From a virus (taxonomy: Duplodnaviria > Caudoviricetes): 57,713 nucleotides of DNA. Below the pieces are notes generated by a model, which was not told where the DNA came from, ran no database searches, and saw only the letters and a list, made by a program, of their open reading frames with translations. The stretch spans positions 1-57,713 of the IMG/VR virus record IMGVR_UViG_3300023184_003134, one strand, 5' to 3'. Of this stretch, positions 9,273 through 57,590 are shown piece by piece (position 1 is the stretch's first letter; the number at the start of each line of letters is the position of its first letter). Made by a program: the position numbers and the translations under genes.

Positions 9273-12200
9273 TTATTTATTTTTTAATTGTGTTTCTAAA
9301 TCTTCTACTTTTTGTAATAATTCTTGCATACCTTTCCATAAAATTGATGTTACTTTTTCATAATCAATACCAGCAACTGTTTTTTCTGTATAAATTGCTT
9401 TATTATTTTTATCTGCATCATATATGACTGATTGCCAAAAGTCATTATTATGTAAATCTTCAGCAATTAAACCAAATGTTTCAACCTCATCATCTGCCCA
9501 ATTTTTATACTTAAATCTTTTAACTGGAACTTTTTTTATATTTTCTAATACACCACCTATTTTCCAATTTCCATAAATATTTTTGGTTTTACGACTTGAT
9601 GAACTTTGAAATAGTTTACCATTAGTAAGGGTATCAGCTTTTATAGTATAGTTTGTACCAGCTCCACTTGGATTTAATGCCAATCCTCTTAAATATACAT
9701 CCGATAATGCAAAAAATGGATTTGCAATTTGAGTAGTTTTACCCGCACCACCTAAATAATTGTGGCCATCGGTAATAATTGCAAATCCTTGATTTATAGC
9801 GTCACTCGCACCTGGTGTTGTAGTATTCCTAGCAATTATACCACCTACAAACTCTCCAGCTGCCACACCACTACTTACACCACTTGCATTTTCGAAAATT
9901 CTAGCATATACTGGTGTATATTGGTTTATGGTATAATCTATTGTACTATATGTCGATACGGCTACCCCTGTGTTTGAATTTGCGGTATCATTATACCCAG
10001 CTATTGATGCTCTCAAACCAAATCCACCGGTAGATATAATACCACCCATTTCAAAACCTGATTGATTTATTTCAGTAAATGGATGGAATGGTTGGCTTTG
10101 AAAAGTAGTACCAGCTCCAATTCTTACTTTATAATAATTTAAGTTATTCGGGTCCATTACTGCAAATTCTTTGTTAGTACTATCTAATCTAGTTACCGAA
10201 TCGGTTGATTTTAATCTAGTAGCTGCAAGTTCCCAACCACCAATCGCACCTGCATTAGCAGTAATTGTTCCTCCCACTGCTAATGTACCTGCACCATCGA
10301 ATGTTACATAATTACTTGCTGAATTTCCAATTGAAAATTTATATGCAGAATCATGATAACCTAAAAAGAAGCCGGTACCGGTATTATAATCTGTCTGTCC
10401 ACCTTTAATATATCCACCACCATTCATTCTAATACCACCTGACCCAATATCAATTGTGGATTCAATACCATATTTTGCCTGATTTGCCGGCGAATAGTTA
10501 CTAACATTACCTAAACCTACGGCCGAACTCGCTAATGTAAATCCACTTAATGTTAATGAGGTTGCTGTTATTGCACCGGTAATAGTTGCCGATGTTGCTG
10601 TTAATGCACCCGCCGATGTTACTTTAAATGTAGAACTTCCACCTAATGCAATTCCATCAGTACCCACATATACTCCGGCATTTGCATCGGTTAAAGTTGC
10701 TTTTCCATTTCCAATATATGAACTATTAATTGCAAAACCAGCAGCTGCTGTGCCTATATATCCCGTTGTTGCAGTTATTGCACCATTTATAGCTAATACT
10801 CCACTTGACCAACTTAATGAATCACTACCAGCTCCACTTAAAAAGAAATTACCGGTATTACTCATATAAGTTTTCCAATCACTTCCATTATAATATCCTA
10901 AGAAAGTTGAACCCAAATATAAACCTGATGTACTTACCGATGGTGTTTTATTTATTAAACCAGTTGTTGATGTGAATACCTTATTATCTACACCGGTTAT
11001 ATTACCTTGTAATGCTGATGCTGATGTATTTAAATTACCTTGTAAAACCGATGAAGATGTATTTAAATTACCTTGTAAAACCGATGAAGATGTATTTAAT
11101 CTTGTAGTTGCGGTTGTTAACGAACCACTAGCTGTACTTCCTGCATAATCTTGGGTTGCACCATTACCACCCGTAATATCAATTGCACCTGCTATTGTTA
11201 ATCCGCCTGCACCATCCCATACTAAATAATTTGAAAATGGAGTTGTAGAAGAACCAGTAAGATAAAATTTACCTTGGTTATCCATATAGGTTTTCCAAGT
11301 ACCACTACCATCATAAAATCCTAAATGCGTATTACCTAAAAACAAACCGGCTACTGATGCGGTTGGTGCTTTTACTACTCTACCATTTGCATCCGTAAAA
11401 ATTCTACCATCTAATAATGCTGTTGTTGCTGCTGTTGATGCTGATATAGATGCTGAGTATGCTAATGATGCGGCATTTGATGCTGATATAGAGGTTGCCG
11501 TAGAACCACTATTTGTAGTTATGGTAGTTGCTAAACTTCCACTATATGAACTTGCCGATAAATATGCTCTATATGCTGATGCTGATATTGATGATGAAAT
11601 TGTATTTATTTCAGTTTGTGTATATATGTTTGAGTTTGAACCTACTATATTAATAGTACCTGCTACTGTTAATCCTCCTGCACCGTCCCATACTAAATAA
11701 TTAGGAAAATGATCATTTGCTGAACCAGTAAGGTAGAATTTACCTTGATTATCCATATACGTTTTCCAATCACTACCACTATAAAATCCTAAATAGTTTG
11801 AACCCAAATATAATCCATTAGATACATTTACTCTTACATTTGGTGGTTTATTAATATTACCACTAACATCCGTAAAAATTCTACCATCTAATAAATTAGT
11901 TGTAAATGCGGTTGATGATGATATTGCTTCTGCTCTTGCCGATAAAGCACCGGAATAAAATAAAGATGATGATGCCAATGAAGCGGACCATAATGTTGCG
12001 TTATACGATGAACCGGATATTCCACTATTTAATGATGCACTTATATACAAAGATGAACTCATTAAACTAGCACTATAAGCGGCTGCTGCTGCATTTGATG
12101 CACTAATTGAAGTATATGCCGAACTACTATATGCACTTGCCGATGAATATACATCTGCTACAGATTTAGTAGTTGCTGCATTTGTTATACCACCTTCTTG

Positions 12201-14065: not shown

Positions 14066-14074
14066 TATAAATAT
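14066..14074 (-). promoter_or_regulatory. Putative phage late promoter motif ATATTTATA
   Basis: Recurrent motif shortly upstream of start codons; here before the tail fibre. Confidence 0.6.
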
Positions 14075-14733: not shown

Positions 14734-17700
14734 TTATTTATATTGAATTTGAGAAAATCCATCTACTTTTTTAATCTCAACCAATGTATCTACAATATCT
14801 CGCATTGCATCCAAGTGAGAAATAATATTAATAAAATCAAATTGTGTTTTAAGGTAATCAAACATCATAAAGATAGATTGTAAATTATCACTATCTAATG
14901 TACCAAATCCTTCATCAATAACTAAAAAGTTTGGACGAGGTAAGTTACATACATTGATAAGTGCAACTCTAATAGCAAGTCCACTAACGAACTTCTCCAT
15001 ACCACTACACATCTCTAGCGGCCAATGTTGGTCCTCATAAACAATCCTAGCGTTCACATTCTTACCACTCATATCAAATACGATACCAAACTCTACAATT
15101 TGCTGTAAGATGTTATTAACCTCGCCTTCTATCACCGGTAGAGCCTTTGCAATTAATTCATATGAAACACCATCTCTCTTTACTGCATCTAAGTAGTATT
15201 CATAAATTTGGAATTTTTCTTCTAAATCTTTTGCTTCTGTCATCTTATCGGTAACTGATGTAATATAAGATTGTGTTTGAACTATTTGTCCATTCATATC
15301 TAACAATCTTGCTGCTATCTCTCTTAGGTCTTTACTAACTCCCGCTAACTCTTGTTTCTTAATATCAATTTGTTCCTCTAAAGAATCATTGTTTTGAATA
15401 GTAGTTTCGTTTGCGTGATATTTTTCTATATCCAATTCTACCGCTGTTAATTGTGCCTCATACAATTCTTTTTGAGTAAGTAATCCACTCAATTCTAATG
15501 TTCTAGTTTTATAAAGTGTTTTGCCTTTTTCTAATTTAGATTTTAAATCATTCCATTGCACATATTGTTCTTCAATACCTTCCCATGAATCTAACGTTTG
15601 TTGAATACCTGTACATTGGATAGTTGCCTGTTTAACTTCTTCTTTCAATTGAGGTAACAATTCTTTTACTCTCATTGCATCTTTTACAAAAGTATTATCA
15701 CAACAAAACTTACAATTTGGGTCATATTTATGATTATCCAATCGTTCAATCGTTTCTTCTGCAGAACTCAAATGTAATTTTGCAATATCATAAATTTTTG
15801 TAGCTTCGATTAAACTTGTTTGTTCTCGTTGATAATTAGAATATACAACTTCTATATCAATATCATTAAATTGTTGTTTACTTAATATTGCGTTTGTTAA
15901 ATCATCTATTGCATCTGTTATCTTAACACAATGTGTTGCTTTAGAATCTGCATCTACAATTGAACCTGTGATTTGAGATTGTAACGTTGATTGTTTACTT
16001 TCTAAATCATCAATATCTAAGTTACCATCAATAGGAACTAATTGAGTGGATAGATTAGTTATTTCTTCATTCAAATCATCTTGTCTATCTTCGTAACCTT
16101 CTTTCTCAATTTCAAATTCTTCATACTCATCCTTTAATATTTCCAATTTATTTTCAGCGGTTGCTAATTCAGATGTAAAATCCGTTCTCTTAAAGTTTCT
16201 TAATAAGACTTGAACTTCTTTAATATCTTCACTCGCTAAATCATATAACTTATCGAATACATTAATACCCATAAATTGAGCTAATAAATCTTTTCTTTCT
16301 GATTGTGATTTATCAATGAATAACGAATTGTTTCCTTGTAAAGATAACGCAGTTAATACAAAATCTTCATACTTTCCTAAATAAGATTCAATTACTTTAT
16401 CCGTTCCTCTACGCTCATCACCATTTAAGTTTACTATTTCACCACCCTCTATTTTCCAAAAGTTTACATCACACTTAACCGCATCACCCTTCTTTGTAGT
16501 TTTAGCAGTTCTCTCAATGAAAAATCTCTCATCATTAATATCAAACTCTAACTTACAACTAAATGATGTTTTACGATTGTTTAGAATGTTAGCTGCCTTA
16601 AATGCTCTACTACTCTTATCAAATATACAAAATGAAAGAGCATCGAATAGAGAGGATTTACCACTAGCGTTTGGAGCGAACACACCCATTAACCCTTTCA
16701 TATTCTCAAAGTTAACGATATTATCCTCACCATAAGAGAACATATTATCAAACTCAAAACGAATTGGTTTCCAAGCTATGTTCTTAACTAAATCATCATC
16801 GTTTAATCGTTTGTTTAGTTTATTGTTCAAATCCTCAATCTTACCTAATGTTTCATTATCCAACATATAGTTTCTACCTAAGTAATCTTTAATAAGACCG
16901 GCTTGGTATTGAGGGTCATTCACATTACCTACATTCACCTTACCATCTTTGTTACCCGTCCTTAAACGAGCTAAAGTGTCGGTACGAGTAATAGTGAACT
17001 CATCTACTTTATATTTCTTTTTAATCTCCGTAGTAACTCTCTTAATATCTGCTGCATCGGTTTTAGATACAAACACTCTAAGACGAGGTTTCACAGGCAT
17101 ATCGGTTACATCAGGTACAATACCATTCTCAACGTGCAAAGTATAATAACCATAATCATTTTGAACATCTACATATTCAACTGATAAATCATCCATATTC
17201 CAAATAGCATAACCATGTTTATCTAATGCCTCACCATGATTCTGTTGTATTAAAGAACCTGGATAAACTACCTTACAACCTTTTGGAGAAATCATAGTTT
17301 GTCTTCTATGTATATCACCTAATAGGGCTAAATCATATCCATCAAACATTTCTGATGTAAAATGACGAGAGGAAATTGTATAACCAACATCCGTAGTTGC
17401 ATCTAATACAGGTCCATGAAATAATGCAATATTTTTAGTATCTGATGTTAATGGTTCAAACACCCAATTCTCTTTATCATCAAATATAGAGAACGTATCA
17501 AATCTTACACCCCCATAGGTATAACTTTGAGTATTTCTTAAATAAGTTAAATTAGGTAAATCTAATGCTTCTACAATTGGAGTTAATACATCCAATCTAC
17601 CCGCATTATTTAAGTTACAATCGTGGTTTCCAGCTATTAATATGGTAGGACATAATTCACAACACTTCTTAAGAAAATAATTTATTTCATTAAGAAGCTC

Positions 17701-17880
17701 CGGTGACATTTCTAATTTTGCGTGAGCTAAGTCTCCCGCTAAATAAATAAGAGAGTCATCAACTCCCTTACTTTTTATATCATCAAACAATCTATCAAAT
17801 ACCTCTCTATATTCCTGGTGTCTTTTTAGATTTCTAATGTGAATGTCCGCAATGTGATAAATTTTCTTTAATTTACTCAT
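14734..17880 (-). CDS. Fused SbcD/Mre11 nuclease and SbcC/Rad50 ATPase (T4 gp47+gp46-like)
   Basis: ADIH, AGD, GNHD, FHG, GDIH phosphoesterase motifs; Walker A NASGKSS; coiled coil with CKFC hook; CSGME signature; Walker B/D-loop VIDEGFGTLD; ISH. Confidence 0.93.
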   Translation of the reverse strand: MSKLKKIYHIADIHIRNLKRHQEYREVFDRLFDDIKSKGVDDSLIYLAGDLAHAKLEMSPELLNEINYFLKKCCELCPTILIAGNHDCNLNNAGRLDVLTPIVEALDLPNLTYLRNTQSYTYGGVRFDTFSIFDDKENWVFEPLTSDTKNIALFHGPVLDATTDVGYTISSRHFTSEMFDGYDLALLGDIHRRQTMISPKGCKVVYPGSLIQQNHGEALDKHGYAIWNMDDLSVEYVDVQNDYGYYTLHVENGIVPDVTDMPVKPRLRVFVSKTDAADIKRVTTEIKKKYKVDEFTITRTDTLARLRTGNKDGKVNVGNVNDPQYQAGLIKDYLGRNYMLDNETLGKIEDLNNKLNKRLNDDDLVKNIAWKPIRFEFDNMFSYGEDNIVNFENMKGLMGVFAPNASGKSSLFDALSFCIFDKSSRAFKAANILNNRKTSFSCKLEFDINDERFFIERTAKTTKKGDAVKCDVNFWKIEGGEIVNLNGDERRGTDKVIESYLGKYEDFVLTALSLQGNNSLFIDKSQSERKDLLAQFMGINVFDKLYDLASEDIKEVQVLLRNFKRTDFTSELATAENKLEILKDEYEEFEIEKEGYEDRQDDLNEEITNLSTQLVPIDGNLDIDDLESKQSTLQSQITGSIVDADSKATHCVKITDAIDDLTNAILSKQQFNDIDIEVVYSNYQREQTSLIEATKIYDIAKLHLSSAEETIERLDNHKYDPNCKFCCDNTFVKDAMRVKELLPQLKEEVKQATIQCTGIQQTLDSWEGIEEQYVQWNDLKSKLEKGKTLYKTRTLELSGLLTQKELYEAQLTAVELDIEKYHANETTIQNNDSLEEQIDIKKQELAGVSKDLREIAARLLDMNGQIVQTQSYITSVTDKMTEAKDLEEKFQIYEYYLDAVKRDGVSYELIAKALPVIEGEVNNILQQIVEFGIVFDMSGKNVNARIVYEDQHWPLEMCSGMEKFVSGLAIRVALINVCNLPRPNFLVIDEGFGTLDSDNLQSIFMMFDYLKTQFDFINIISHLDAMRDIVDTLVEIKKVDGFSQIQYK

Positions 17881-19686: not shown

Positions 19687-19695
19687 TATAAATAT
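19687..19695 (-). promoter_or_regulatory. Putative late promoter ATATTTATA
   Basis: Recurrent motif. Confidence 0.55.
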
Positions 19696-20800: not shown

Positions 20801-20809
20801 TATAAATAT
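20801..20809 (-). promoter_or_regulatory. Putative late promoter ATATTTATA
   Basis: Recurrent motif, immediately downstream of a terminator. Confidence 0.6.
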
Positions 20810-22782: not shown

Positions 22783-22791
22783 TATAAATAT
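22783..22791 (-). promoter_or_regulatory. Putative late promoter ATATTTATA
   Basis: Recurrent motif. Confidence 0.6.
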
Positions 22792-27688: not shown

Positions 27689-27697
27689 TATAAATAT
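27689..27697 (-). promoter_or_regulatory. Putative late promoter ATATTTATA
   Basis: Recurrent motif. Confidence 0.55.
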
Positions 27698-36468: not shown

Positions 36469-36477
36469 TATAAATAT
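36469..36477 (-). promoter_or_regulatory. Putative late promoter ATATTTATA heading the baseplate operon
   Basis: Recurrent motif. Confidence 0.6.
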
Positions 36478-48633: not shown

Positions 48634-49413
48634 TTATTTTAGAATATTTGTTGTAATTAATTGATTATTAACAAGATATGTATATAATTTTTTTGAATAT
48701 TTTTTATTATGTATGTATCCTGGATGTGCTCCATCAACTCCATTATCAACAAATGGTGCTGAATAATCTCCATCAAATCTATTATTATCATTATAATCAT
48801 TAGTTGCATACCATCCATTCCAAACCCAATTACATTTTTTTGATTCTAAAAATAATTTTATTAACGTATGGTTTTTATACCAATTTATAAAATTGTTTGA
48901 TTTATTTAATAAAGTAAGATGTGCATTATGTTCATTTACACCATTTTCGGTTTCTTTAAAATACCCCCAACTTTTATGGTGGAATGGTTCTATACCACCT
49001 TCATTGGTATAAAATTCTCGTCTATGTGATTCGGTATACATAATTAAAACTAAATCAGGTTTTACTAAATCGTAATATGTCATCAAACAACGGGTGATAT
49101 AATCATTACTTCTACCACCACATCCGAAATTTAAATCAACTCCATTTGGTATTAATTTACACAATTGATGTGACCATGTTTCGTTATCATTTACACCAAC
49201 TCCCTCAGTAATAGAACAACCTAATGACATTACCTTAAACCCTTCTTTTTTTATACTAGCTCCTCTAAACCCCAATTCATTATAAGTGTAAGTGCAATTT
49301 CCTGTAATATCTGAACCCGAACCTTTATATGTTTGATTAACTCTTTCACTTAAATTGTTTCTAAACGATGAAATTTCAAATCCCGCAGGATTCCAATATT
49401 CTAATGCCTTCAT
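48634..49413 (-). CDS. SGNH/GDSL-like esterase or acyltransferase
   Basis: NELGFR, SLGCSITEG, NFGCGG, DGAHPG. Confidence 0.75.
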   Translation of the reverse strand: MKALEYWNPAGFEISSFRNNLSERVNQTYKGSGSDITGNCTYTYNELGFRGASIKKEGFKVMSLGCSITEGVGVNDNETWSHQLCKLIPNGVDLNFGCGGRSNDYITRCLMTYYDLVKPDLVLIMYTESHRREFYTNEGGIEPFHHKSWGYFKETENGVNEHNAHLTLLNKSNNFINWYKNHTLIKLFLESKKCNWVWNGWYATNDYNDNNRFDGDYSAPFVDNGVDGAHPGYIHNKKYSKKLYTYLVNNQLITTNILK

Positions 49414-49913
49414 ATTAATTTATTTCTTTCTATTTTTATATGTTCGTTTTCTAAAAACCATAATAAAGAATACCTTTCACCTTCTAAAATTGGTGTTATT
49501 TCGTGGTCTATTCTTACATCAAATAAATATGTATTCCCAATAACTTTATCTAATATAATTTCATTTGGGTTGTATAATTTAAAATCACCTCCTATAAAAT
49601 TATCGTTTAATAATACACCAATTGCGTATAATCTTTCATCTCTAACATCATTATGCTTACCAAACCAATTACCTTTTGCAAATTTATGAAAATGTATTTC
49701 TTCTTTATTTTTTATAATTTGTAAACCAGTTTCGGATTCAAAAAAATATTTTAATTTATCAAATAACCATTTATTTTGTAATGAATAATCAATTGGTTGG
49801 GAATGGTATTTTCTATTTTCCATATTAAAGTTTGCAATATTTTCATTTGCATTCCATACAATAGATTCACATTCTACTTTATTAAATAATACTCTTTGGC
49901 TTAATAATTTCAT
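49410..49913 (-). CDS. 2OG-Fe(II) oxygenase (P4H-like)
   Basis: KHND, GGDF, HEITP..EGERYSL. Confidence 0.88.
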   Translation of the reverse strand: MKLLSQRVLFNKVECESIVWNANENIANFNMENRKYHSQPIDYSLQNKWLFDKLKYFFESETGLQIIKNKEEIHFHKFAKGNWFGKHNDVRDERLYAIGVLLNDNFIGGDFKLYNPNEIILDKVIGNTYLFDVRIDHEITPILEGERYSLLWFLENEHIKIERNKLI

Positions 49914-50439
49914 TACTTAAGTTTTGTTTTTCAACAAATAACATTAATGTTATTCTATTTCCTTTGGTTATCATATCAACTGAATGTGGTGATGACGATT
50001 CAAAAATATAAACTTTTCCAGTTTCAAAATTTATTATAGTTTCATTATTACTACTATATATTTTAAAATCACCACCTATAAAATCTTCTTTTGAATTTAA
50101 TTGAACTCCAATTGTATATATTCTTTCTGCACCATTTTTTATGTGGTCATCATGTTTTATAAAATAATCACCTTCTTTGTAATTTCTATATGCTGTAAAT
50201 ATATTATTGTTAATTATTTTTTTAATATTTGGTATGCCATTTACCCAATTGACTATTCTTTCCGCAAACCATATATTTTCATTGTTCCAAATTAAAGTAT
50301 TTGATAACATTTTACCTCCTATTTTAGTTTCTTTAGTATTATAATCAACAGATATTTCTCTATTGTGCCATTGATTTGCGTATGATATAATTTTATCACA
50401 TTCTTCTTTTGTGAATAAAATTTCTTCTTTTAATAACAT
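49882..50439 (-). CDS. 2OG-Fe(II) oxygenase (P4H-like)
   Basis: KHDD, GGDF, HSV...GNRITL. Confidence 0.88.
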   Translation of the reverse strand: MLLKEEILFTKEECDKIISYANQWHNREISVDYNTKETKIGGKMLSNTLIWNNENIWFAERIVNWVNGIPNIKKIINNNIFTAYRNYKEGDYFIKHDDHIKNGAERIYTIGVQLNSKEDFIGGDFKIYSSNNETIINFETGKVYIFESSSPHSVDMITKGNRITLMLFVEKQNLSNEIIKPKSII

Positions 50440-50444
50440 TTTTT

Positions 50445-50561
50445 CTAAATTAATTTATTAACTTTCGTATTAACCCTATATTTTTGCCCAACGGGAAAGT
50501 TTTTATTTTCTAAATCAGTTATGTCCAAATAATCTAATATTTTTTGAAATTCATTAATCAT
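50445..50561 (-). pseudogene. 38-aa ORF, probable 3' remnant of a sulfotransferase-like gene
   Basis: Hand-translated MINEFQKILDYLDITDLENKNFPVGQKYRVNTKVNKLI; fills the gap and carries the cluster C-terminal tag. Confidence 0.45.
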
Positions 50562-50562
50562 A

Positions 50563-51147
50563 TTATATTAATTTTTTTTCGTTTGTTATTGGGTTATTTT
50601 GTCTTTGTTTATGTTTTGGGTGTAAAATTTCATAATCCAAAGAAATTGATTTATCAATTAAACCCGTACCATAGTATATGTTTTCGTAGGTGTCAATTGG
50701 GACATTTAATAAATTTGATAATTTAATCATATATTCGTTTACCATTTTAATTTTAATCTCCAACTTGTCGGCAAGATTATCATATAAGTGATTGTGGTAA
50801 AGATATTTAGCTCTTTCATCCATTCCCGAATTTTGTACCGATAATGATTCTGCATTTTCTTTTGTGTTTTCTCTTATGATTAATATAACTTTATCAAATT
50901 GTTTACTAAAATCTACATAAAAATCAACACAATTTTGCAAATGCTCTTCTGTAACCGTTTCAGTTTTGAATTTATCGTCAATTTGACTTAATTGAGTTTT
51001 AAACACTATATTTTCAATTTCAAACTCAGTTATTCCCCTTCTAAATGGTTCATATATATAAGAAAGATTATTAGCAGCTGCTATCGATTTCATCAATGAA
51101 CTTGTTCCAGACCTTGGTATTCCAATTATTAAAAAATTATTTTTCAT
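50563..51147 (-). CDS. Sulfotransferase-like protein (P-loop, PAPS-binding)
   Basis: GIPRSGTSSL (5'-PSB), YEPF, R.N......S (3'-PB), TYENIY. ATG start at MKNNF. Confidence 0.8.
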   Translation of the reverse strand: MKNNFLIIGIPRSGTSSLMKSIAAANNLSYIYEPFRRGITEFEIENIVFKTQLSQIDDKFKTETVTEEHLQNCVDFYVDFSKQFDKVILIIRENTKENAESLSVQNSGMDERAKYLYHNHLYDNLADKLEIKIKMVNEYMIKLSNLLNVPIDTYENIYYGTGLIDKSISLDYEILHPKHKQRQNNPITNEKKLI

Positions 51148-51183
51148 AGTTTTTAAAATTAAGTGTGGTATATCCACATTTGT

Positions 51184-51750
51184 TTATATTAATGTTTTTT
51201 TAAAGTTTTCTATTGGTGTCAACCTAAACCAATTAACCAATGAATATCGTGTTCCTGTTGTTATGGGTTTTACTCTATGTGTTAAATGTGAATAAAATAT
51301 AAATAAATTACCCAATCCTTTTTCTAAAGTTATTTCATTATTATCTTTGTCTTTTATTTGTAATTCTCCACCGGTATACTCATCATTTAATTGTATTACC
51401 ATTGAGCAATACCTTTTAGAAAAAACTTCGTCCTCATTCCCACTATCCTCATGCCAATTATAATAACCGTCTTTTGTATATTCTGTAAATTGAAACATAT
51501 TATTTGTAAAATCAATAACGTATCCTTTCACATTCACCTCTTTTTTAAAAATATTAATTAATTTTTCATTTAAATTTGGAAAATTTAAACTATAATCATA
51601 GAAAAAAACATTTGATTTTCTACTTTTTAAATCCAACATGTTAGGTCCACCCACCCCTGCTGGCTTTAATTCTTTAGTTAATGAAAATTGTAATAAATCT
51701 TCACATTCTTTTTTTGATAGAAGATTTGGTATAGTAGTATAGTTTATCAT
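51184..51750 (-). CDS. 2OG-Fe(II) oxygenase (P4H/PKHD-like)
   Basis: RKS, YNWHED, YTGGEL, HRVKP...GTRYSLVNW. Confidence 0.92.
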   Translation of the reverse strand: MINYTTIPNLLSKKECEDLLQFSLTKELKPAGVGGPNMLDLKSRKSNVFFYDYSLNFPNLNEKLINIFKKEVNVKGYVIDFTNNMFQFTEYTKDGYYNWHEDSGNEDEVFSKRYCSMVIQLNDEYTGGELQIKDKDNNEITLEKGLGNLFIFYSHLTHRVKPITTGTRYSLVNWFRLTPIENFKKTLI

Positions 51751-51759
51751 TTATTAAAA

Positions 51760-52287
51760 TTATATTAAAGATTTTTTATTTATTGAAATTTCTTTCCAAT
51801 GTAAAAATAATTGAATAACAGATTCGTTGTCGGCACATATTAATTCATCTCTCCAATGTGTAATTTTATCCGAATTTATTATAAGTACACCATCTCCAAT
51901 ATTTGGTGTGTGTGAAATTTCAATATTGTTATATTCGGCATTAAGTGACCATCCTTGTTTAATGTTTGAAAATAAACAAATGCTTAATGTAATACCAATA
52001 TCGTCCCTATCTACGTGTTTTTTTAAAACTGAACCATTTTTATATTCTCTAACAAATGAATTAACATTTTTAATTTCTTTATTATGATTTAACTCAGTAA
52101 TAATTGGTTTTATAGTATTTAATAATTTATCAAATTCACCATAACCTCTGAAACCATACGTTGTTTTATAATTAAGTAATGTATCATATTTATCCGAATT
52201 TATTTTTATTTTTTGTAGTCTACGAAAATCAGAAACTAACAGTTCACAATCTTCAGCTGAAACTAAATTATTTAATAAATGTATCAT
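51760..52287 (-). CDS. 2OG-Fe(II) oxygenase (phage type)
   Basis: REY..GSVLKKHVDR, GDGV, HWRDEL, QLFLHW. Confidence 0.82.
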   Translation of the reverse strand: MIHLLNNLVSAEDCELLVSDFRRLQKIKINSDKYDTLLNYKTTYGFRGYGEFDKLLNTIKPIITELNHNKEIKNVNSFVREYKNGSVLKKHVDRDDIGITLSICLFSNIKQGWSLNAEYNNIEISHTPNIGDGVLIINSDKITHWRDELICADNESVIQLFLHWKEISINKKSLI

Positions 52288-52985
52288 ATGATATTATTTG
52301 ATTTGATAAATCTTTTTTCGAATAATTCCCAATACCAGTTCCTTAATTCATCATCTATTATAATTTTATTTTCTTGTTTTACGAAATTATTATGTAACAT
52401 ATTATTTGGATTTATATTTGATATGAGTATGTTTTCTTTATATTTTTTATAAAAAAATTCTTCAACTTTATATAATTCATTAATACTAAATTCATATGTA
52501 CATTTTTCATTGTTTTTCCAAAATTGTTGTGAAATCATTAAATTGGATATTAAACCAAAATTTGGCGCTGTTTTAGGTGCACCTTTATAATCTTTTACGA
52601 TTATAAAATTATTTTTTTCTGTTGTTTCATAATAATGCATATTATTTACAAATGTTTTATCAAATGTTTTATACAAAAAATTATTATCAATATCTTTCCA
52701 ATTTATAATTGGTGTATATCCATCTTTATCGATTGATAACCAAATTGTTTGTAATGAACTAATCCATCGTTCCAATGGGTCTCTGGTTATACAAATTGTT
52801 TCTTTTTTTCCAAAATATTCATACAATTCATCAAGTTTAATATGTAAATGATTATATGGGTCTTTGTAATACTGCCTATGTTTTTCAATTTTTAAATTAG
52901 AATTTAATAATGCGTTTTCTATTGAACTACTTGCACATTTTGGAACCGATACCCATATCAAATCATTATTAATCAATAATCCCAT
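52284..52985 (-). CDS. Sulfotransferase family 2-like protein
   Basis: SVPKCASSSI and RDPLERWIS. Confidence 0.85.
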   Translation of the reverse strand: MGLLINNDLIWVSVPKCASSSIENALLNSNLKIEKHRQYYKDPYNHLHIKLDELYEYFGKKETICITRDPLERWISSLQTIWLSIDKDGYTPIINWKDIDNNFLYKTFDKTFVNNMHYYETTEKNNFIIVKDYKGAPKTAPNFGLISNLMISQQFWKNNEKCTYEFSINELYKVEEFFYKKYKENILISNINPNNMLHNNFVKQENKIIIDDELRNWYWELFEKRFIKSNNII

Positions 52986-53482
52986 TATAATAAACTTTTA
53001 TTTGTTTTTTGTTTTTTTTGTAAAAATGTATATAAACTAAATCTAACTCCGGATATCATAGGTTCAACTTTATGTAATGTTTTACTATGAATTTTAACAC
53101 TTAATCCTGTTTTTGGTGTTATTGAAAATTCTAAATCATTATCGTAATGAATTAATTTTCCACCTTCAAAATTTTCATTTAAATATGTAACAAAACTTAA
53201 ATCACCACTATCTTTATGTTTACTATTGTGTATCTGTCTATCTGGTTTTATTATGTTTATAGCAGTTTCAATTAATTCATATTCACCATTAGATGTTATT
53301 ATTTTATAGTATTCTTTTAATTTGTTGTCATCTACAAATATAGAATCAAACCACAAATTTTCTCCTAAATTATTTTTTTGATTATAGGTTGTACGCCACT
53401 TCCATTTTGTTTCGTCGTATATTAAATTGTTAATATACTTCAATTCTTCCTGTGTCAATAGATTTTGTAATATTTCTACCAT
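52985..53482 (-). CDS. 2OG-Fe(II) oxygenase (P4H-like)
   Basis: KHKD, YLNENFEGG, HKVEP...GVRFSL. Confidence 0.88.
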   Translation of the reverse strand: MVEILQNLLTQEELKYINNLIYDETKWKWRTTYNQKNNLGENLWFDSIFVDDNKLKEYYKIITSNGEYELIETAINIIKPDRQIHNSKHKDSGDLSFVTYLNENFEGGKLIHYDNDLEFSITPKTGLSVKIHSKTLHKVEPMISGVRFSLYTFLQKKQKTNKSLL

Positions 53483-54525
53483 TATATTAAAGTTTTATTA
53501 GTATTATCAATAAATTCATATAAGTTATGAAAAACATTTTGGTTTTTCCATATTTTATTAAAATTTATTTTAAACAATTCATGTTCCGGATGTTCCGTAT
53601 CCCATACTTGTTTTAATTTAAACTCCCCTTCTGAAAACGTCCCCCAATTAGTTATTTTACCAAAAAATACATTTACTCGTTTACCAAAAATGGAATACAT
53701 TAAATTATAAAACATTTCCATTTCGGTATAATTCGTATCTTGTACCACAAACGATGTTTTTATTGATGTTAATGTTTGTATTGTATTAATAAATTTTAAA
53801 TTACTTAGTAAATTTTCCCAATTACCACCTAATCTTGTTTTATTTTCATACGTATACTTTGTCCCCGCGTCAATACTTATTTCACAAGTGTGAACATATT
53901 TATGTACGTTTGGCATACTATTCCACATTTCTTTATTCCACATACTTGCGTTTGTGTGTAGGTGTATATTTTGTAATTTGGGATATTTTTCAGGGTTAAA
54001 GTTTCTTAAATAATTTCTAAAGCTAACCGAAACAAATGGGTCACCTGTACCCGTAATATATAAAGTTTTTACATTTTGTGAATAATATGTGTCAATTTCG
54101 TCTATTGTTTTTTCAATACGTTTTAATCCTTCACTACTTTCAACAATTAAATCTACTCTACAAGATGGACATTTGTAATTGCAAGTTCTATCAAAATTCA
54201 TTACCAAATAGTCAGGTGTATTATTATCTATAATTGGAGTTGTGTAGTGTGAATTTATTTTTAAATGTATTGGGCCTGATGGAATCCCATAGTTTACCAA
54301 TTTACTTAAATAGGGACAAAGTTCTTTATCACAATATTTAAATGAACCATCTATTATAGAATTTCTAATATCAATAATTGGTGCACTATTGTATATGTCC
54401 TTTAAAGGAATTTCACCAATCTCTATTTTATTGGGTAACCAAGATGGACAACAAACAAAACAAACATTATTATGTATTTCCAATGAATTAAATGGAACAC
54501 CACATATGTAATTTTTTAAATTCAT
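53482..54525 (-). CDS. Radical SAM protein with N-terminal SPASM/twitch-like Cys cluster
   Basis: ICGVPF...CFVCC...YCDKELCP; CNYKCPSC; GTGDP; HTNA; ISIDA. Confidence 0.9.
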   Translation of the reverse strand: MNLKNYICGVPFNSLEIHNNVCFVCCPSWLPNKIEIGEIPLKDIYNSAPIIDIRNSIIDGSFKYCDKELCPYLSKLVNYGIPSGPIHLKINSHYTTPIIDNNTPDYLVMNFDRTCNYKCPSCRVDLIVESSEGLKRIEKTIDEIDTYYSQNVKTLYITGTGDPFVSVSFRNYLRNFNPEKYPKLQNIHLHTNASMWNKEMWNSMPNVHKYVHTCEISIDAGTKYTYENKTRLGGNWENLLSNLKFINTIQTLTSIKTSFVVQDTNYTEMEMFYNLMYSIFGKRVNVFFGKITNWGTFSEGEFKLKQVWDTEHPEHELFKINFNKIWKNQNVFHNLYEFIDNTNKTLI

Positions 54526-54540
54526 AGTGTGTTATGTTAA

Positions 54541-54828
54541 TTATAACAATGATTTAATAGATTTAGATTTAAAAGTTTGATATGTGGTATCAACCTCTTC
54601 CCATTTTTTCAATGGACAATCGTTAAAATCATTTGAAAATATCTTTTTAGATATAGGACAACCACATTCACCACATACTACCCCTAATTTTAATTTATTT
54701 GTTAATACTTTTCTAGACGGACAAGATTCACAAATTTCATTTCGTTTTTCTGCGAGTAATTTTTGTGATGGATTGGGGTTATGCGCAATAATCCAGGCAC
54801 TATAAATCTTTTTAAAATTTAAATCCAT
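54541..54828 (-). CDS. Small Cys-rich metal-binding protein
   Basis: R..ICESCP...CGECGCP...K......CPLKKW. Confidence 0.75.
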   Translation of the reverse strand: MDLNFKKIYSAWIIAHNPNPSQKLLAEKRNEICESCPSRKVLTNKLKLGVVCGECGCPISKKIFSNDFNDCPLKKWEEVDTTYQTFKSKSIKSLL

Positions 54829-54944: not shown

Positions 54945-56477
54945 TTATTTAGGGGTATATGGAGTACAACCTGGTCTACAAATACAAAGGGGTCTACCTG
55001 CACAAGCTAAGGTAGTATTACCCGGCCCGTCACAATATAATCCTTTTGGACAGGTGGACTGTTCACATGGACCGGTGTTAGAACTACAACCCACGTTGTG
55101 TTCAATTGTTACAAATGATGTATTGTTGGATGTTTGTGTTAAGAACATATGTGCCCTTTCAACACTAATAACCCATCCATCAAATATTTGTTTTGTTGTT
55201 GTTATAGATGCAACTTCTTTAATTATTGGATTGAAATTACCATCCGTTGTGTCTAATAATATTATACTGTCACCAATTTGAATTGTATCTTCGTTGCCGG
55301 TTTCATGTGATAATGACACAAATTTAATGTTATCATTTCTCACAATTAAATAATTTGAAGTATTAGTATCTTCCCAAAAAGTATTATCGGTAAAATCAAT
55401 TCTAACATAATTAACAATTTGACTAACTTTTTGTTTATTAGTGACTGCGTTTGTTGAATATGTTGTACCAGTTAAAAATGTATTATATGATATACCAAAA
55501 TCAGCGATTTCCGATTCCATATCTACTTCATTTGGATTTGGAATGTCTATTGTTTTTATTATATCTCCAACTTGTAATTCTAATGCAGTTTTAAATGAAC
55601 CGTCCGCCATTTCTACTTTATCAGTATCTAACAATTTTGGCGCGACTAATGAGTATTCGTTGCTAATATATCTATTTTTAAATTCGGTATTCAATTCAAA
55701 TGTTATGGTATCATATGTTACATCACTATCTAATCTTCCAGTTGGTAAATATGTATAACCACCCAGAGAAATACTTTCTAAATTTGGAGGGAATAATAGA
55801 TTCATTCCTCTAAATATTTGAATATGGTCTTGATATAATTTATCTATATTCAAATGAAATTCCATTAGAAAATGACCATTGTCTATATTTGATAATATTG
55901 TATTTAATTCCGATTCATTTGATACTTTATAAAATTTAGGATAATTTGTTTTATCATATCCAGGATTAACCGCTTTTAAAATAAAGTTAGGATGAACACC
56001 ATTATCGTTTATAGATGTGATATGATTAACTAAATCACCATTACTATCTTTATATGCAAATTGTGAGGCAAATGTAGAATCTTTTATTAAATTTAAAAAA
56101 TTAACTTTATCTTTACAATATGTGTCATCCACCAATGCGGTAGTATCGTATGCACTTCTAATAATCAAAGTTTCATCGTTGTCCTCAACAAATGGAATTG
56201 TGATTGAAGATGCTCCGGTTTCGTGGTGTTCAAATGAAATGCCTAAAGTAGTGGTTAACGTTTTTAATTTTTTATTAAACTTTAAAACTGAGCCAATGTA
56301 CACTACTTTAGTAAAAGCTTTTTCAGTTATAAAATTAGAAAGTTCCGTAAAATCTAATGCTGTTTCATTATCTTCAACTGTTAGATTTACCCAACCTATA
56401 TTTGTGTTAAGTTCTATTGGTACTAAATTACCATCTTTATTGTATACGAAGTCCGACCCGATTAATACTGTTCTCAT
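54945..56477 (-). CDS. Circularly permuted ATP-grasp domain + Hint domain + C-terminal Cys-rich peptide
   Basis: GSDF....DG...IELNTN, FILKA, FLMEF (ATP-grasp); KVEMADGSFK...LQVGD, IQIGD, WVISVERAHMF, EHN (Hint); then 49 aa with 8 Cys. Confidence 0.8.
   Translation of the reverse strand: MRTVLIGSDFVYNKDGNLVPIELNTNIGWVNLTVEDNETALDFTELSNFITEKAFTKVVYIGSVLKFNKKLKTLTTTLGISFEHHETGASSITIPFVEDNDETLIIRSAYDTTALVDDTYCKDKVNFLNLIKDSTFASQFAYKDSNGDLVNHITSINDNGVHPNFILKAVNPGYDKTNYPKFYKVSNESELNTILSNIDNGHFLMEFHLNIDKLYQDHIQIFRGMNLLFPPNLESISLGGYTYLPTGRLDSDVTYDTITFELNTEFKNRYISNEYSLVAPKLLDTDKVEMADGSFKTALELQVGDIIKTIDIPNPNEVDMESEIADFGISYNTFLTGTTYSTNAVTNKQKVSQIVNYVRIDFTDNTFWEDTNTSNYLIVRNDNIKFVSLSHETGNEDTIQIGDSIILLDTTDGNFNPIIKEVASITTTKQIFDGWVISVERAHMFLTQTSNNTSFVTIEHNVGCSSNTGPCEQSTCPKGLYCDGPGNTTLACAGRPLCICRPGCTPYTPK
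55095..55637 (-). other. Hint (intein-like) domain, aa 281-461, predicted C-terminal cleavage only
   Basis: Block A position 1 is Lys, block B His is absent, block F His and terminal His-Asn are retained, and +1 is Val. Confidence 0.75.
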
Positions 56478-56494: not shown

Positions 56495-56503
56495 TATAAA
56501 TAT
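56495..56503 (-). promoter_or_regulatory. Putative late promoter ATATTTATA heading the Hint/tailoring cluster
   Basis: Same motif and same 17-nt spacing as before the tail fibre gene. Confidence 0.6.
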
Positions 56504-56897: not shown

Positions 56898-56909
56898 ATA
56901 ATATAAATA

Positions 56910-57590
56910 TTAAGAACGTTGAACATCTCTTAAATAATCATCTAAATTGGTTACTCTTTGTGATAAAGGTAAAACTACGTCGGTAGAAACAGGTACAAAA
57001 TCAGATGGTAATGTTTGATATGTTCCGCTAATTCTTACATTAGTTTCATCAAATAAAAATAATATTTGTTTGATAATATTTTCTTCATTTAATTGAGTAT
57101 CATCCATATTATTATAAAATTGTAAATCTAATGCAGTGACTCCGGCTAAACCTAATTTACTATTTAATGTTTGTGATGGTGTTGCTGTAACTTGAATTGA
57201 ACCACTTGTTGAACTCCCTATTAGTGTACCGGTATAGGTAATTGAATTGGCTGTAATCTCTGCCCCATATTTACTACCAATGTAATTAATAGTTTTAGAT
57301 AAATCCATTTCTATTGTAATTAAATCTTTTATAGTATAGTATGGATTGTTTTCTTTATATGCTGTAACTAATGTATCAAATAAATGTTGGGGAATATATG
57401 TATTACTCCCCAACTTTACTGCGAAATTAATAGATTGAGATGGACAATTGAATACTTTGTATGTTGCCGTATTAGGGTCAATCGTTTTTAGTTCTCTAAA
57501 GTTTTTATCAAATACTCCTTTAAATAAAATTGTATTAGGATTTACTCTACTATAAGAACCATAATCATTTGTTACTTCTCTACTAAACAT
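56910..57590 (-). CDS. Hypothetical protein
   Basis: 226-aa ATG ORF. Confidence 0.7.
   Translation of the reverse strand: MFSREVTNDYGSYSRVNPNTILFKGVFDKNFRELKTIDPNTATYKVFNCPSQSINFAVKLGSNTYIPQHLFDTLVTAYKENNPYYTIKDLITIEMDLSKTINYIGSKYGAEITANSITYTGTLIGSSTSGSIQVTATPSQTLNSKLGLAGVTALDLQFYNNMDDTQLNEENIIKQILFLFDETNVRISGTYQTLPSDFVPVSTDVVLPLSQRVTNLDDYLRDVQRS

Follow-up and report, generated by a model that had tools for sequence, protein, structure and literature searches.

What is to be made of a phage protein that appears to hold, in a single chain, an ATP-dependent ligase, an autocatalytic Hint domain and a small cargo to be set free by it? This question is raised by a gene in the IMG/VR viral contig IMGVR_UViG_3300023184_003134, a 57.7-kb stretch of DNA (hereafter the window; estimated to be 27% complete, G+C ~28%) and in which the minus strand holds nearly all genes. 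The gene codes for a protein of 510 amino acids, the ATP-grasp/Hint/cargo protein, for which we use the shorthand G510; s95 is our shorthand for its Cys-rich partner protein of 95 amino acids. A preliminary description, made from the letters alone, had divided G510 into a circularly permuted ATP-grasp, a Hint domain fit for cleavage but not for splicing, and a C-terminal peptide, which the protein's own ligase might cyclize or attach to a target. Our analysis suggests an answer to which we give an even chance: G510 could be a three-part carrier protein of a large clade of uncultured T4-like phages, which releases its cargo by Asn cyclization and is furnished with an amide ligase. The first part (residues 1-276) would be a small permuted ATP-grasp amide ligase; the second (residues 281-461) would be a Hint domain without the N-terminal splicing residues, which cuts between Asn461 and Val462 through cyclization of Asn461; and the third (residues 462-510) would be an exchangeable 5-kDa mini-protein of the disulfide type, freed with a new alpha-amine.

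A large protein family of uncultured phages

The G510 family is large and confined to big uncultured phages. Of the 8000 candidates scored in a word-indexed search, 711 proved homologous at E<=0.001, and an exhaustive profile search gave 354 clusters at 50% identity, 292 of them at E<=1e-10. Almost all of the best 120 relatives are 490-530 amino acids long, and none has a precomputed Pfam domain. G510 itself lacks any Pfam match at E<=10, PHROGs returned nothing useful at E<=1, and profile searches of PDB sequences with either the whole protein or its N-terminal domain gave only chance-level matches (Ataxin-1 AXH, E 1.4; HP0162, E 0.13). Scanning of IMG/VR confirmed 97 loci, the longest contig measuring 335 kb, and the context counts draw on 80 of them; tblastn searches of 50,697 GenBank phage records found no match to G510. 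The homologs keep the N-terminus MRTVLIGSDF, which indicates that the start codon of G510 is right. All the residues singled out in the preliminary description lie where it had placed them: D9, E22-L-N24, the Lys of ILK (K168), the Glu of LMEF (E206), P280-K281-L282, H443 in ERAHMF, and I458-E459-H460-N461 followed by V462.

The conservation figures given below derive from several sets of sequences: unfiltered alignments of 30 close relatives, of 16 N-terminal domains and of 10 distant members with long cargos; a set of 163 full-length homologs with short tails, chosen for the motifs E-x-N-T and x-[EMQ]-H-N, in which those four positions are fixed by construction; and, for the count of the His-Asn junction, 222 fetched relatives of at least 470 amino acids gathered without a junction filter. 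The AlphaFold model of the whole of G510, computed from the 30-sequence alignment, has a mean predicted local distance difference test score (pLDDT) of 77.5, falling below 50 over residues 453-510. Fold searches of such models recovered both of the folds named in the preliminary description, which had called for this kind of confirmation.

A predicted circularly permuted ATP-grasp domain

Foldseek searches of the PDB with the whole model retrieved yeast and human glutathione synthetase and Escherichia coli YjfC and YgiC (E 1.4e-6 to 1e-4). A VIA search of 48,161 chains likewise matched residues 1-277 at Z 8.8 to 7.2 to glutathionylspermidine synthetase (GspS, Z 8.8), YgiC, glutathione synthetases, two structures labeled "CP ATP-grasp", Cp1B and trypanothione synthetase. 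When the N-terminal domain was refolded alone (residues 1-285, pLDDT 83.5), ranks 1-24, the Foldseek matches listed at E<=0.001, were all GspS, YgiC/YjfC, glutathione synthetase or a close relative, led by YjfC (7uk6, E 2.2e-6) and including the yeast glutathione synthetase (E 1e-5), and VIA again placed YgiC (Z 8.5, 200 residues aligned, root-mean-square deviation (rmsd) 3.9) and GspS (Z 8.3) at the top. In the ten best of these VIA matches (Z 8.5 to 6.4), all of them permuted ATP-grasps, the alignment begins at model residue 1-5, whereas for the classical ATP-grasps (TTLL, DcsG, LysX, ArgX, RimK, Ddl, PurK and synapsin) it begins only at residue 52-56. This is the pattern that a circular permutation predicts, and the permuted layout of the eukaryotic glutathione synthetase/GspS type that had been proposed for G510 thus finds support in the fold searches of the models.

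The conserved residues are in keeping with this assignment. D9, E22 and N24 lie on two strands (residues 2-12 and 18-24) in both the whole-protein and the N-terminal domain models. E22, N24, R107, K168 and R223 are invariant in the unfiltered alignments of 30, 16 and 10 sequences, at equivalent positions in the case of the distant long-cargo clade; D9 is conserved at 90% or more in them. Among the 163 homologs, R107, K168 and R223 are each present in 163, and D9 in 157, the remaining six having gaps at the N-terminus. The spacing D-13-ExN is one that we take to be the same as in classical ATP-grasps. By motif order, the conserved D9, E22, N24, R107, K168, E206 and R223 may correspond to ligand residues of the solved enzymes. 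For one of these, Cp1B, R139, D141, E163 and N165 are reported to be needed for activity (PMC12568646). The ATP-grasp assignment of residues 1-276 is made from fold, in predicted structures, and motif conservation, and we think it fairly likely that this domain is an active amide ligase.

A Hint domain with a near-universal His-Asn junction

The identification of residues 281-461 as a Hint fold is unambiguous in the models. VIA returned 26 intein, bacterial intein-like (BIL) or hedgehog matches over model residues 277-461 with Z from 13.6 to 9.3, the foremost being the TvoVMA intein (Z 13.6, 146 residues, rmsd 2.9), BIL2 (Z 13.5) and hedgehog (1at0, Z 12.4), and many of them set residue 281 opposite intein residue 1 or hedgehog Cys258. 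Foldseek had BIL2 as its top match here (E 2e-7), followed by several inteins and hedgehog (1at0). The boundaries that had been given for the domain hence stand, as does the replacement of the usual Cys1 by Lys: K281 is invariant, together with P280, L282, H460 and N461, in the 30-sequence alignment, and in the 163 homologs this position is K 130 times, H 16 times, and L and I five times each, with no C, S or T among the residues listed. The place of the block B His appears, from motif alignment, to be taken by S374 (S 139, T 13, N 5 and C 3 of 163), in agreement with its reported absence. Two further details had been read from G510 alone and hold for it, H443 as the block F His and Val after Asn461; in the family, only 115 of 163 homologs share this His, and Val is merely the commonest of 16 residues at the position after Asn461 (n=189: V 50, A 32, P 16, L 15, T 8, S 5, C 0). 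The G510 Hint has no conserved block F Cys.

What the family does hold fast is the junction at the end of the domain. H460-N461 is invariant in the 30 close and the 10 distant-clade sequences, and His-Asn occurs at the expected place in 218 of the 222 relatives; two of the other four have QNN and QSN, thereby keeping the Asn, and two have large insertions. This dipeptide is the very border between the conserved body of the protein and its hypervariable tail. In inteins and related domains, C-terminal cleavage by Asn cyclization uses the His and Asn of positions G:6 and G:7 (PMC4031507). As the N-terminal nucleophile and, as a rule, the Cys, Ser or Thr at the +1 position are missing, the G510 Hint should be unable to splice; in sequence terms it departs from inteins and type A BILs in three defining features. 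The description of the domain as one that only cleaves is therefore borne out in its conservation pattern, that is, no nucleophile at 281, no usual +1 Cys/Ser/Thr and a near-universal His-Asn, and the cleavage itself is a prediction. We think it quite probable that the Hint cuts between Asn461 and Val462, which would yield products of 52.08 and 4.98 kDa and a new alpha-amine. If so, G510 would be a natural Hint domain specialized for the C-terminal release of interchangeable cargos and fused to an enzyme.

An exchangeable cargo behind the junction

The G510 tail, which starts with VGCSS, is hypervariable except for a Cys framework and a single Lys (C476-P-K478-G). Between proteins whose bodies are 80-90% identical the tails are only 51% identical (42% without the Cys columns; 164 pairs), and with bodies of 70-80% identity this falls to 34%. 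In the 163 short tails Cys makes up 17.7% of the residues; they also abound in Gly and Pro, have few hydrophobic or acidic residues, and all but one of them have 6, 8, 10 or 12 Cys (162 tails; the other has 9). The even numbers, including 6 and 10, favor disulfide pairs over Cys4 metal sites. Lys is found in 163 of 163 tails, in 150 of them as C-x(1,2)-K, and 33 of 163 are devoid of both Asp and Glu. A search of a protein atlas with the tail gave no usable match.

Across the family at large the tail ranges from 23 to 1242 residues. Some long relatives, in proteins exceeding 1000 amino acids, have BACON domains behind IEHN (P0180, 3e-17; P0187, 8e-12; Pfam); among nine long relatives Pfam detected no toxin domain, and BACON domains were the only cargo domains that it named. 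In deeply diverged clades, found through a neighboring gene, MHN or QHN is followed by other Cys-rich tails, AHN by a single canonical Hint domain, and SHN by three canonical Hints in tandem. The latter arrangements are seen in the loci L152 (3218-5956), L162 (220-2961) and L171 (12210-14060), where the cargo that comes after the nucleophile-less Hint consists of one or three canonical Hints, each with Cys1, T-x-x-H and a terminal HN, and with two-residue linkers between them. The Cys at the +1 position in one distant clade (L171) is explained by the cargo being itself a Hint domain. As cargos of 150 to more than 1200 amino acids stand behind the same His-Asn in relatives of G510, the suggestion that the protein's own ligase cyclizes the freed peptide is disfavored as a general role.

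A distant locus on a 187.8-kb IMG/VR contig (L084) gives a more pointed view of this exchange. Between positions 10361 and 12075 it has four copies of a 31-44-nucleotide repeat encoding AQAYISIEHN, two in each orientation, which open into frames for cargos of 69 residues (Cys-rich), about 160 residues (not Cys-rich), 53 residues and 75 residues; a homolog of s95 lies between the second and third copies. Since the repeats end at His-Asn and a different cargo follows each of them, the cargo can be regarded as a module that is exchanged exactly at the His-Asn codons. Such an arrangement is reminiscent of a shufflon or of a group of orphan cassettes, and no invertase was found among the five open reading frames (ORFs) scanned there. 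It took an alignment of ten long relatives to find this locus; with P0176 as the single query, the viral contigs yielded none. Among 85 loci, L084 alone has spare cassettes consisting of IEHN and a Cys-rich tail, the window having none, and no public sequencing run with the L084 cassette region was found.

The 211-kb contig IMGVR_UViG_3300042892_005961 has two paralogous G510 genes ~38 kb apart (L005 and L053) with differing tails, each copy having its own s95 gene directly downstream.

An obligate partner and an array of C-terminally tagged proteins

The s95 gene is coupled to that of G510 in nearly all of the loci kept for context: of the 78 with both, 44 have s95 directly downstream (within 250 nucleotides), 30 within 3 kb and four directly upstream; two are without it. 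Six of its Cys are conserved and the mean column identity is 44%. It belongs to no Pfam family and had no tblastn match in the 50,697 GenBank phage records; the protein atlas offers a weak lead, DUF6171, present in 15% of the members of the rank-8 cluster, on which a literature search found no paper. A complex prediction of G510 with s95 scored 0.11 against a mark of 0.32 and, being run without controls, weighs neither way on binding.

The s95 gene opens a row of nine consecutive genes in the window, the products of which are s95, a radical S-adenosylmethionine (SAM) enzyme, four 2-oxoglutarate (2OG)-Fe(II) oxygenase-like proteins, a sulfotransferase-like protein and two proteins that we term o175 and o194. 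They terminate in IKSLL, NKTLI, NKSLL, SNNII, KKSLI, KKTLI, EKKLI, PKSII and RNKLI, each closing with a Leu/Ile pair that K, N, S or T precedes. One of the tagged oxygenase-like proteins is encoded at 51184..51750. Such a terminal pair occurs in 9 of 9 ORFs of this array as against 2 of 50 other ORFs of the window (Fisher p 4e-9). Downstream of the G510 gene, counted over the 80 loci, the terminal motif [KRN][STKN][LI][LI] is found in 201 of 415 ORFs up to 3 kb away and in 84 of 271 at 3-6 kb, as against 57 of 654 upstream and 1 of 65 on the opposite strand. It marks about ten protein families beside the G510 gene: counted on unique sequences, a terminal hydrophobic pair is present in 53 of 56 s95 proteins, 30 of 30 radical SAM enzymes, 36 of 36 sulfotransferase-like proteins, 38 of 38 members of a further neighbor family, o167, 36 of 43 members of one 2OG oxygenase-like family (2OGb) and 20 of 21 o175 proteins. 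It is absent from the G510 family itself (0 of 57) and never occurs in several other neighbors. The tag is strictly terminal: among 515 ORFs it occurs 216 times at offset 0 and never at offsets 1-2, and no other offset tested has more than three occurrences. Codons are used in the tag just as they are in the gene bodies, which points to selection on the peptide and not on the DNA; for this reason, and because both AGT and TCN codons serve for Ser, a DNA signal was rejected as an explanation.

The tag and the G510 gene travel together over a considerable evolutionary distance. A search anchored on the radical SAM gene found a G510-family gene in 45 of 45 loci with at least 7 kb of upstream sequence, some of these being only 22-29% identical, and 74 of 74 radical SAM copies have the tag; conversely, the radical SAM gene is present in 39 of the 80 G510 loci. 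Arrays of 10-15 tagged genes border the G510-family gene in three deeply diverged clades. No tag-like ends were seen among 23 annotated proteins of the 2OG oxygenase loci of two cultured cyanophages. Across the window and loci L100-L173, the radical SAM enzyme stays 73-86% identical where the identity of the ATP-grasp/Hint gene is only 22-55%. This enzyme (53482..54525, minus strand, in the window) has a Cys-rich N-terminal extension and the motif CNYKCPSC. The composition of the tails bears no clear imprint of these enzymes: Tyr content is 3.17 against 3.22 with respect to the sulfotransferase-like gene, the radical SAM gene shows no relation, and a correlation between the number of 2OG genes and tail Pro (r 0.39), which ignores relatedness, is not informative. 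The shared C-terminal tag is a lead in its own right, and the context as a whole, namely an obligate small partner and a tagged array, changes which ligation targets are plausible.

A functional model and what weighs against it

GspS and glutathione synthetase activate a peptide's C-terminal carboxylate as an acyl phosphate and couple it to an amine. YgiC and YjfC have been termed peptidylpolyamine synthetases (PMC12568646); in type A BILs the amine freed by Asn cyclization is described as attacking an activated acyl group (PMC4031507); and BIL2 has been presented as a single-turnover conjugation platform (PMC8616854). On account of these precedents a coupling between ligase, cargo and tag is attractive. 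Under such a model, the ATP-driven ligase would act in one turnover per molecule, coupling an amine of the cargo, which might be either its unmasked N-terminus or its single conserved Lys, to a carboxylate, for which the best candidates would be the C-terminal ...K-[ST]-L-[IL] tags of s95 and the co-encoded enzymes. This full model, in which the ligase joins cargo amine to tag carboxylate, is built by analogy, and we place it somewhere between improbable and doubtful. If true, it would be a categorically new way of joining proteins, of interest for protein engineering, and would account for the row of "auxiliary" enzymes in these phages.

In its most specific form, which we consider improbable, an ATP-driven single-turnover ligase would weld many tagged proteins to one exchangeable cargo. 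The ATP-grasp would recognize the terminal ...K-[ST]-L-[IL] and convert its carboxylate into an acyl phosphate, to which it would then couple the alpha-amine unmasked by the Hint. The carriers would be s95 and up to about 15 enzymes, with a disulfide mini-protein, BACON adhesin or set of Hint repeats as the cargo. Such a reaction would amount to an intein-like ligation with an acyl phosphate in place of the thioester, and to a sortase-like sorting logic in a virus.

Several observations count against the carrier model as a whole. For the N-terminal domain, the Z-scores are moderate (8.5), and a best Z of 7-8 can stem from a common arrangement; the Foldseek TM-scores normalized to the query are 0.37-0.45, and sequence-level family membership is absent in the Pfam, PHROG and PDB-sequence profile searches. 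For the Hint domain, the last strand is modeled as poorly as the tail, the block F His is not invariant, and canonical inteins are reported to show slow Asn cyclization unless the earlier steps are done (PMC4031507). Contact of the ligase with cargo or tags is something that we infer. The tag could serve another reader, and the accessory enzymes, which stay 73-86% identical while the cargo changes completely, may act on something else; the indifference of tail Tyr content to the sulfotransferase-like gene belongs here too.

Alternative readings

The most durable alternative, a serious contender albeit still a doubtful one, severs the tag from G510 altogether. Recognition would fall to another factor, for instance a PDZ-like reader, a host protease, a clamp or a head-packaging system, and the tag's location beside G510 would reflect a shared hyperplastic region. 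Several known readers do use C-terminal hydrophobic pairs, the link between tag and G510 is one of genome position, and there are tagged genes on both sides at a distance of a few kb as well. Set against this are the invariable co-occurrence with the radical SAM gene across 22-86% divergence, the flanking arrays in three deeply diverged clades, and the untagged 2OG loci of the cultured cyanophages together with the want of G510 or s95 matches in GenBank phages.

A less likely possibility, though one that the neighborhood brings readily to mind, is a system akin to ribosomally synthesized and post-translationally modified peptides (RiPPs). Here residues 1-461 would be a self-cleaving leader scaffold docking the tags of tailoring enzymes; the 2OG, radical SAM and sulfotransferase-like enzymes would modify the Cys-rich core, the ATP-grasp would cyclize or cross-link it, and the Hint would free the peptide. 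Borosins are a precedent for the fusion of enzyme and substrate, and the adjoining enzyme classes are typical of peptide modification. The hypervariable core, whose Cys framework is fixed and whose content of Pro, Gly and Ser is high, the universal tail Lys, mostly as C-x(1,2)-K, and the radical SAM gene that never occurs without a G510-family gene, while the converse does occur, would all suit such a system, as would the weak positive relation of 2OG gene number to tail Pro noted above. Yet cargos of 150 to more than 1200 residues, made of BACON domains or tandem Hints, are no peptide cores; in L152-L159, where the cargo is entirely different, the radical SAM enzyme retains 73% identity; Tyr content ignores the sulfotransferase-like gene; and the 33 tails without Asp or Glu exclude a general side-chain cross-link of the graspetide type.

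It is decidedly unlikely, in our estimate, that no cleavage takes place and that the Hint is a structural spacer in an intact 57-kDa ATP-grasp enzyme with a Cys-rich binding or metal-binding module, replaced in relatives by other binding modules. Variable C-terminal binding domains such as BACON are indeed common on enzymes; the N-terminal half of the Hint catalytic apparatus is lost, the block F His varies, and cleavage is predicted from sequence. A non-catalytic Hint would nonetheless be unlikely to retain His-Asn in 218 of 222 relatives, and the Asn in two more, at a hypervariable border; the L084 cassettes recombine precisely at the His-Asn codon; and Cys counts of 6 and 10 are not the multiples of four expected for Cys4 metal sites.

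Finally, a very improbable reading likens G510 to polymorphic toxins, with a pretoxin-type Hint freeing a variable effector, s95 as immunity or helper protein and spare cassettes downstream, a layout of Hint followed by a variable C-terminus for which there is precedent (PMC3113570) and to which the L084 orphan cassettes with their constant junction and a weak PT-HINT match over the Hint region of the relative P0176 (E 3.4e-4, 21.3 bits against a Pfam cut-off of 27.7) would lend themselves, but immunity proteins co-vary with their toxins, whereas s95 is conserved beside a hypervariable cargo and a single s95 serves four L084 cassettes, the nine long relatives have no toxin domain by Pfam, and the N-terminus is an enzyme without a secretion or trafficking domain.

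Relationship to known systems

Returning to the three-part carrier model, each of its elements has counterparts elsewhere. GspS, YgiC/YjfC, eukaryotic glutathione synthetase and the fungal Cp1B are the best structural matches of residues 1-276; they share the Asp...Glu-x-Asn segment placed ahead of the rest of the fold, and formation of an amide via an acyl phosphate would be expected of G510 as well. It differs from this group in the size of its domain (~280 residues as against 370-600), in the lack of detectable sequence similarity, in its fusion to a Hint and in being phage-encoded. With the type A BILs and the Tetrahymena BIL2 it has in common the Hint fold, the C-terminal His-Asn and the dispensability of a +1 nucleophile. 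BIL2, too, dispenses one cargo per molecule (PMC8616854). BILs, however, begin with Cys and form a thioester, whereas G510 has Lys at position 1 and Ser at the place of the block B His; its Hint should therefore be incapable of forming a thioester, and any activated acyl group would have to come from the ATP-grasp.

The PT-HINT domains resemble the G510 Hint in standing directly before a highly variable C-terminal module that is thought to be released (PMC3113570), in the spare cassettes with a constant junction (as in L084) and in the weak match of P0176, but G510 has neither a recognizable toxin domain nor an immunity gene that varies to match, and its N-terminus is an ATP-grasp and not a region related to secretion. 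By predicted structure, then, G510 is a Hint-based cargo releaser, of the kind seen in PT-HINT and BIL proteins, joined to a GspS-like ligase, and a member of these superfamilies by fold only. The amino-group carrier system of LysW with LysX or ArgX offers a parallel in genomic organization, in that the gene for an ATP-grasp ligase adjoins one for a small Cys-rich protein whose conserved C-terminal tail is flexible, and LysX/ArgX-LysW complexes are among the VIA matches (Z 5.5-5.7). The tail of LysW, however, terminates in an acidic residue, whereas s95 ends in K-x-K-T-L-I (IKSLL in the window); the ATP-grasp of LysX is of the classical, unpermuted kind; and in the G510 loci about ten further families share the s95-type tail.

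In the sortase/LPXTG and exosortase/PEP-CTERM systems, unrelated proteins of one genome share a C-terminal signal that is handled by one dedicated processing enzyme. The tag of the G510 loci differs from those signals in having 4-6 residues, in being strictly terminal, cytoplasmic and phage-encoded, and in the lack of a membrane anchor, and the enzyme proposed for it would be ATP-driven and not a transpeptidase. Graspetide-type RiPPs, in turn, are set apart from the family by its 33 of 163 tails without an acidic residue and by cargos that can exceed 1000 residues.

While each of the folds is known, their combination is in no curated family of Pfam or PHROG. Full-text literature searches, judged mostly by title or abstract and covering main texts, found no ATP-grasp-Hint fusion, and PMC3113570 treats ATP-grasp and Hint domains separately. 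The G510 family is real and widespread, and its mechanism is in part one that we infer.

Other features of the window

The coordinates of the features discussed are collected in the table.

Table. Features of G510 and its surroundings in the window
Feature	Coordinates	Strand	Basis or remarks
Whole G510 ORF	54945..56477	minus	510 amino acids plus stop codon, 57.0 kDa, ATG start
Predicted circularly permuted minimal ATP-grasp, residues 1-276	55650..56477	minus	AlphaFold model, Foldseek and VIA
D9...E22-x-N24, N-terminal beta-hairpin, presumed Mg/ATP-binding triad	56406..56453	minus	Motif conservation and models
Hint domain, K281 to His460-Asn461	55095..55637	minus	VIA, Foldseek and alignment
Asn461-Val462 codons, predicted scissile bond (Asn cyclization)	55092..55097	minus	His-Asn conservation, hypervariable border, L084 cassettes
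Cargo, residues 462-510	54948..55094	minus	49 amino acids, 4.98 kDa, 8 Cys, isoelectric point 8.2; pLDDT <50
s95, 95 amino acids, Cys-rich, CxxC...CxxCxC...C, flexible tail ending IKSLL	54541..54828	minus	Present in 78/80 loci
Nine consecutive tagged genes	49410..54828	minus	All end in [LI][LI]-COOH after K/N/S/T
Upstream motif ATATTTATA	56495..56503	minus	18 nucleotides upstream of the G510 start codon; common to eight or nine other genes

The motif ATATTTATA upstream of G510 is possibly, to judge from its distribution in the sequence, a promoter element of the phage. Its 10 copies in the window equal the chance expectation, and it is notable solely for its bias in strand and position: all 10 lie on the coding strand, and eight of them sit 12-31 nucleotides upstream of ORF starts (56495..56503, 56902..56910, 36469..36477, 27689..27697, 22783..22791, 20801..20809, 19687..19695 and 14066..14074), the ORFs behind them including G510 and the two largest of the window (1621 and 1591 amino acids). 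A T4 late promoter was rejected as its identity, since in the sense orientation it does not read TATAAATA and it occurs just as often as chance would predict.

Elsewhere, the window codes for a T4-like baseplate wedge protein, an SbcCD-like nuclease and a carbamoyltransferase. The nuclease is encoded by a single ORF of 1048 amino acids (14734..17880, minus strand), which is SbcD-like over residues 5-300 and SbcC-like over residues 348-1047; its sequence suggests that the two nuclease subunits have been fused.

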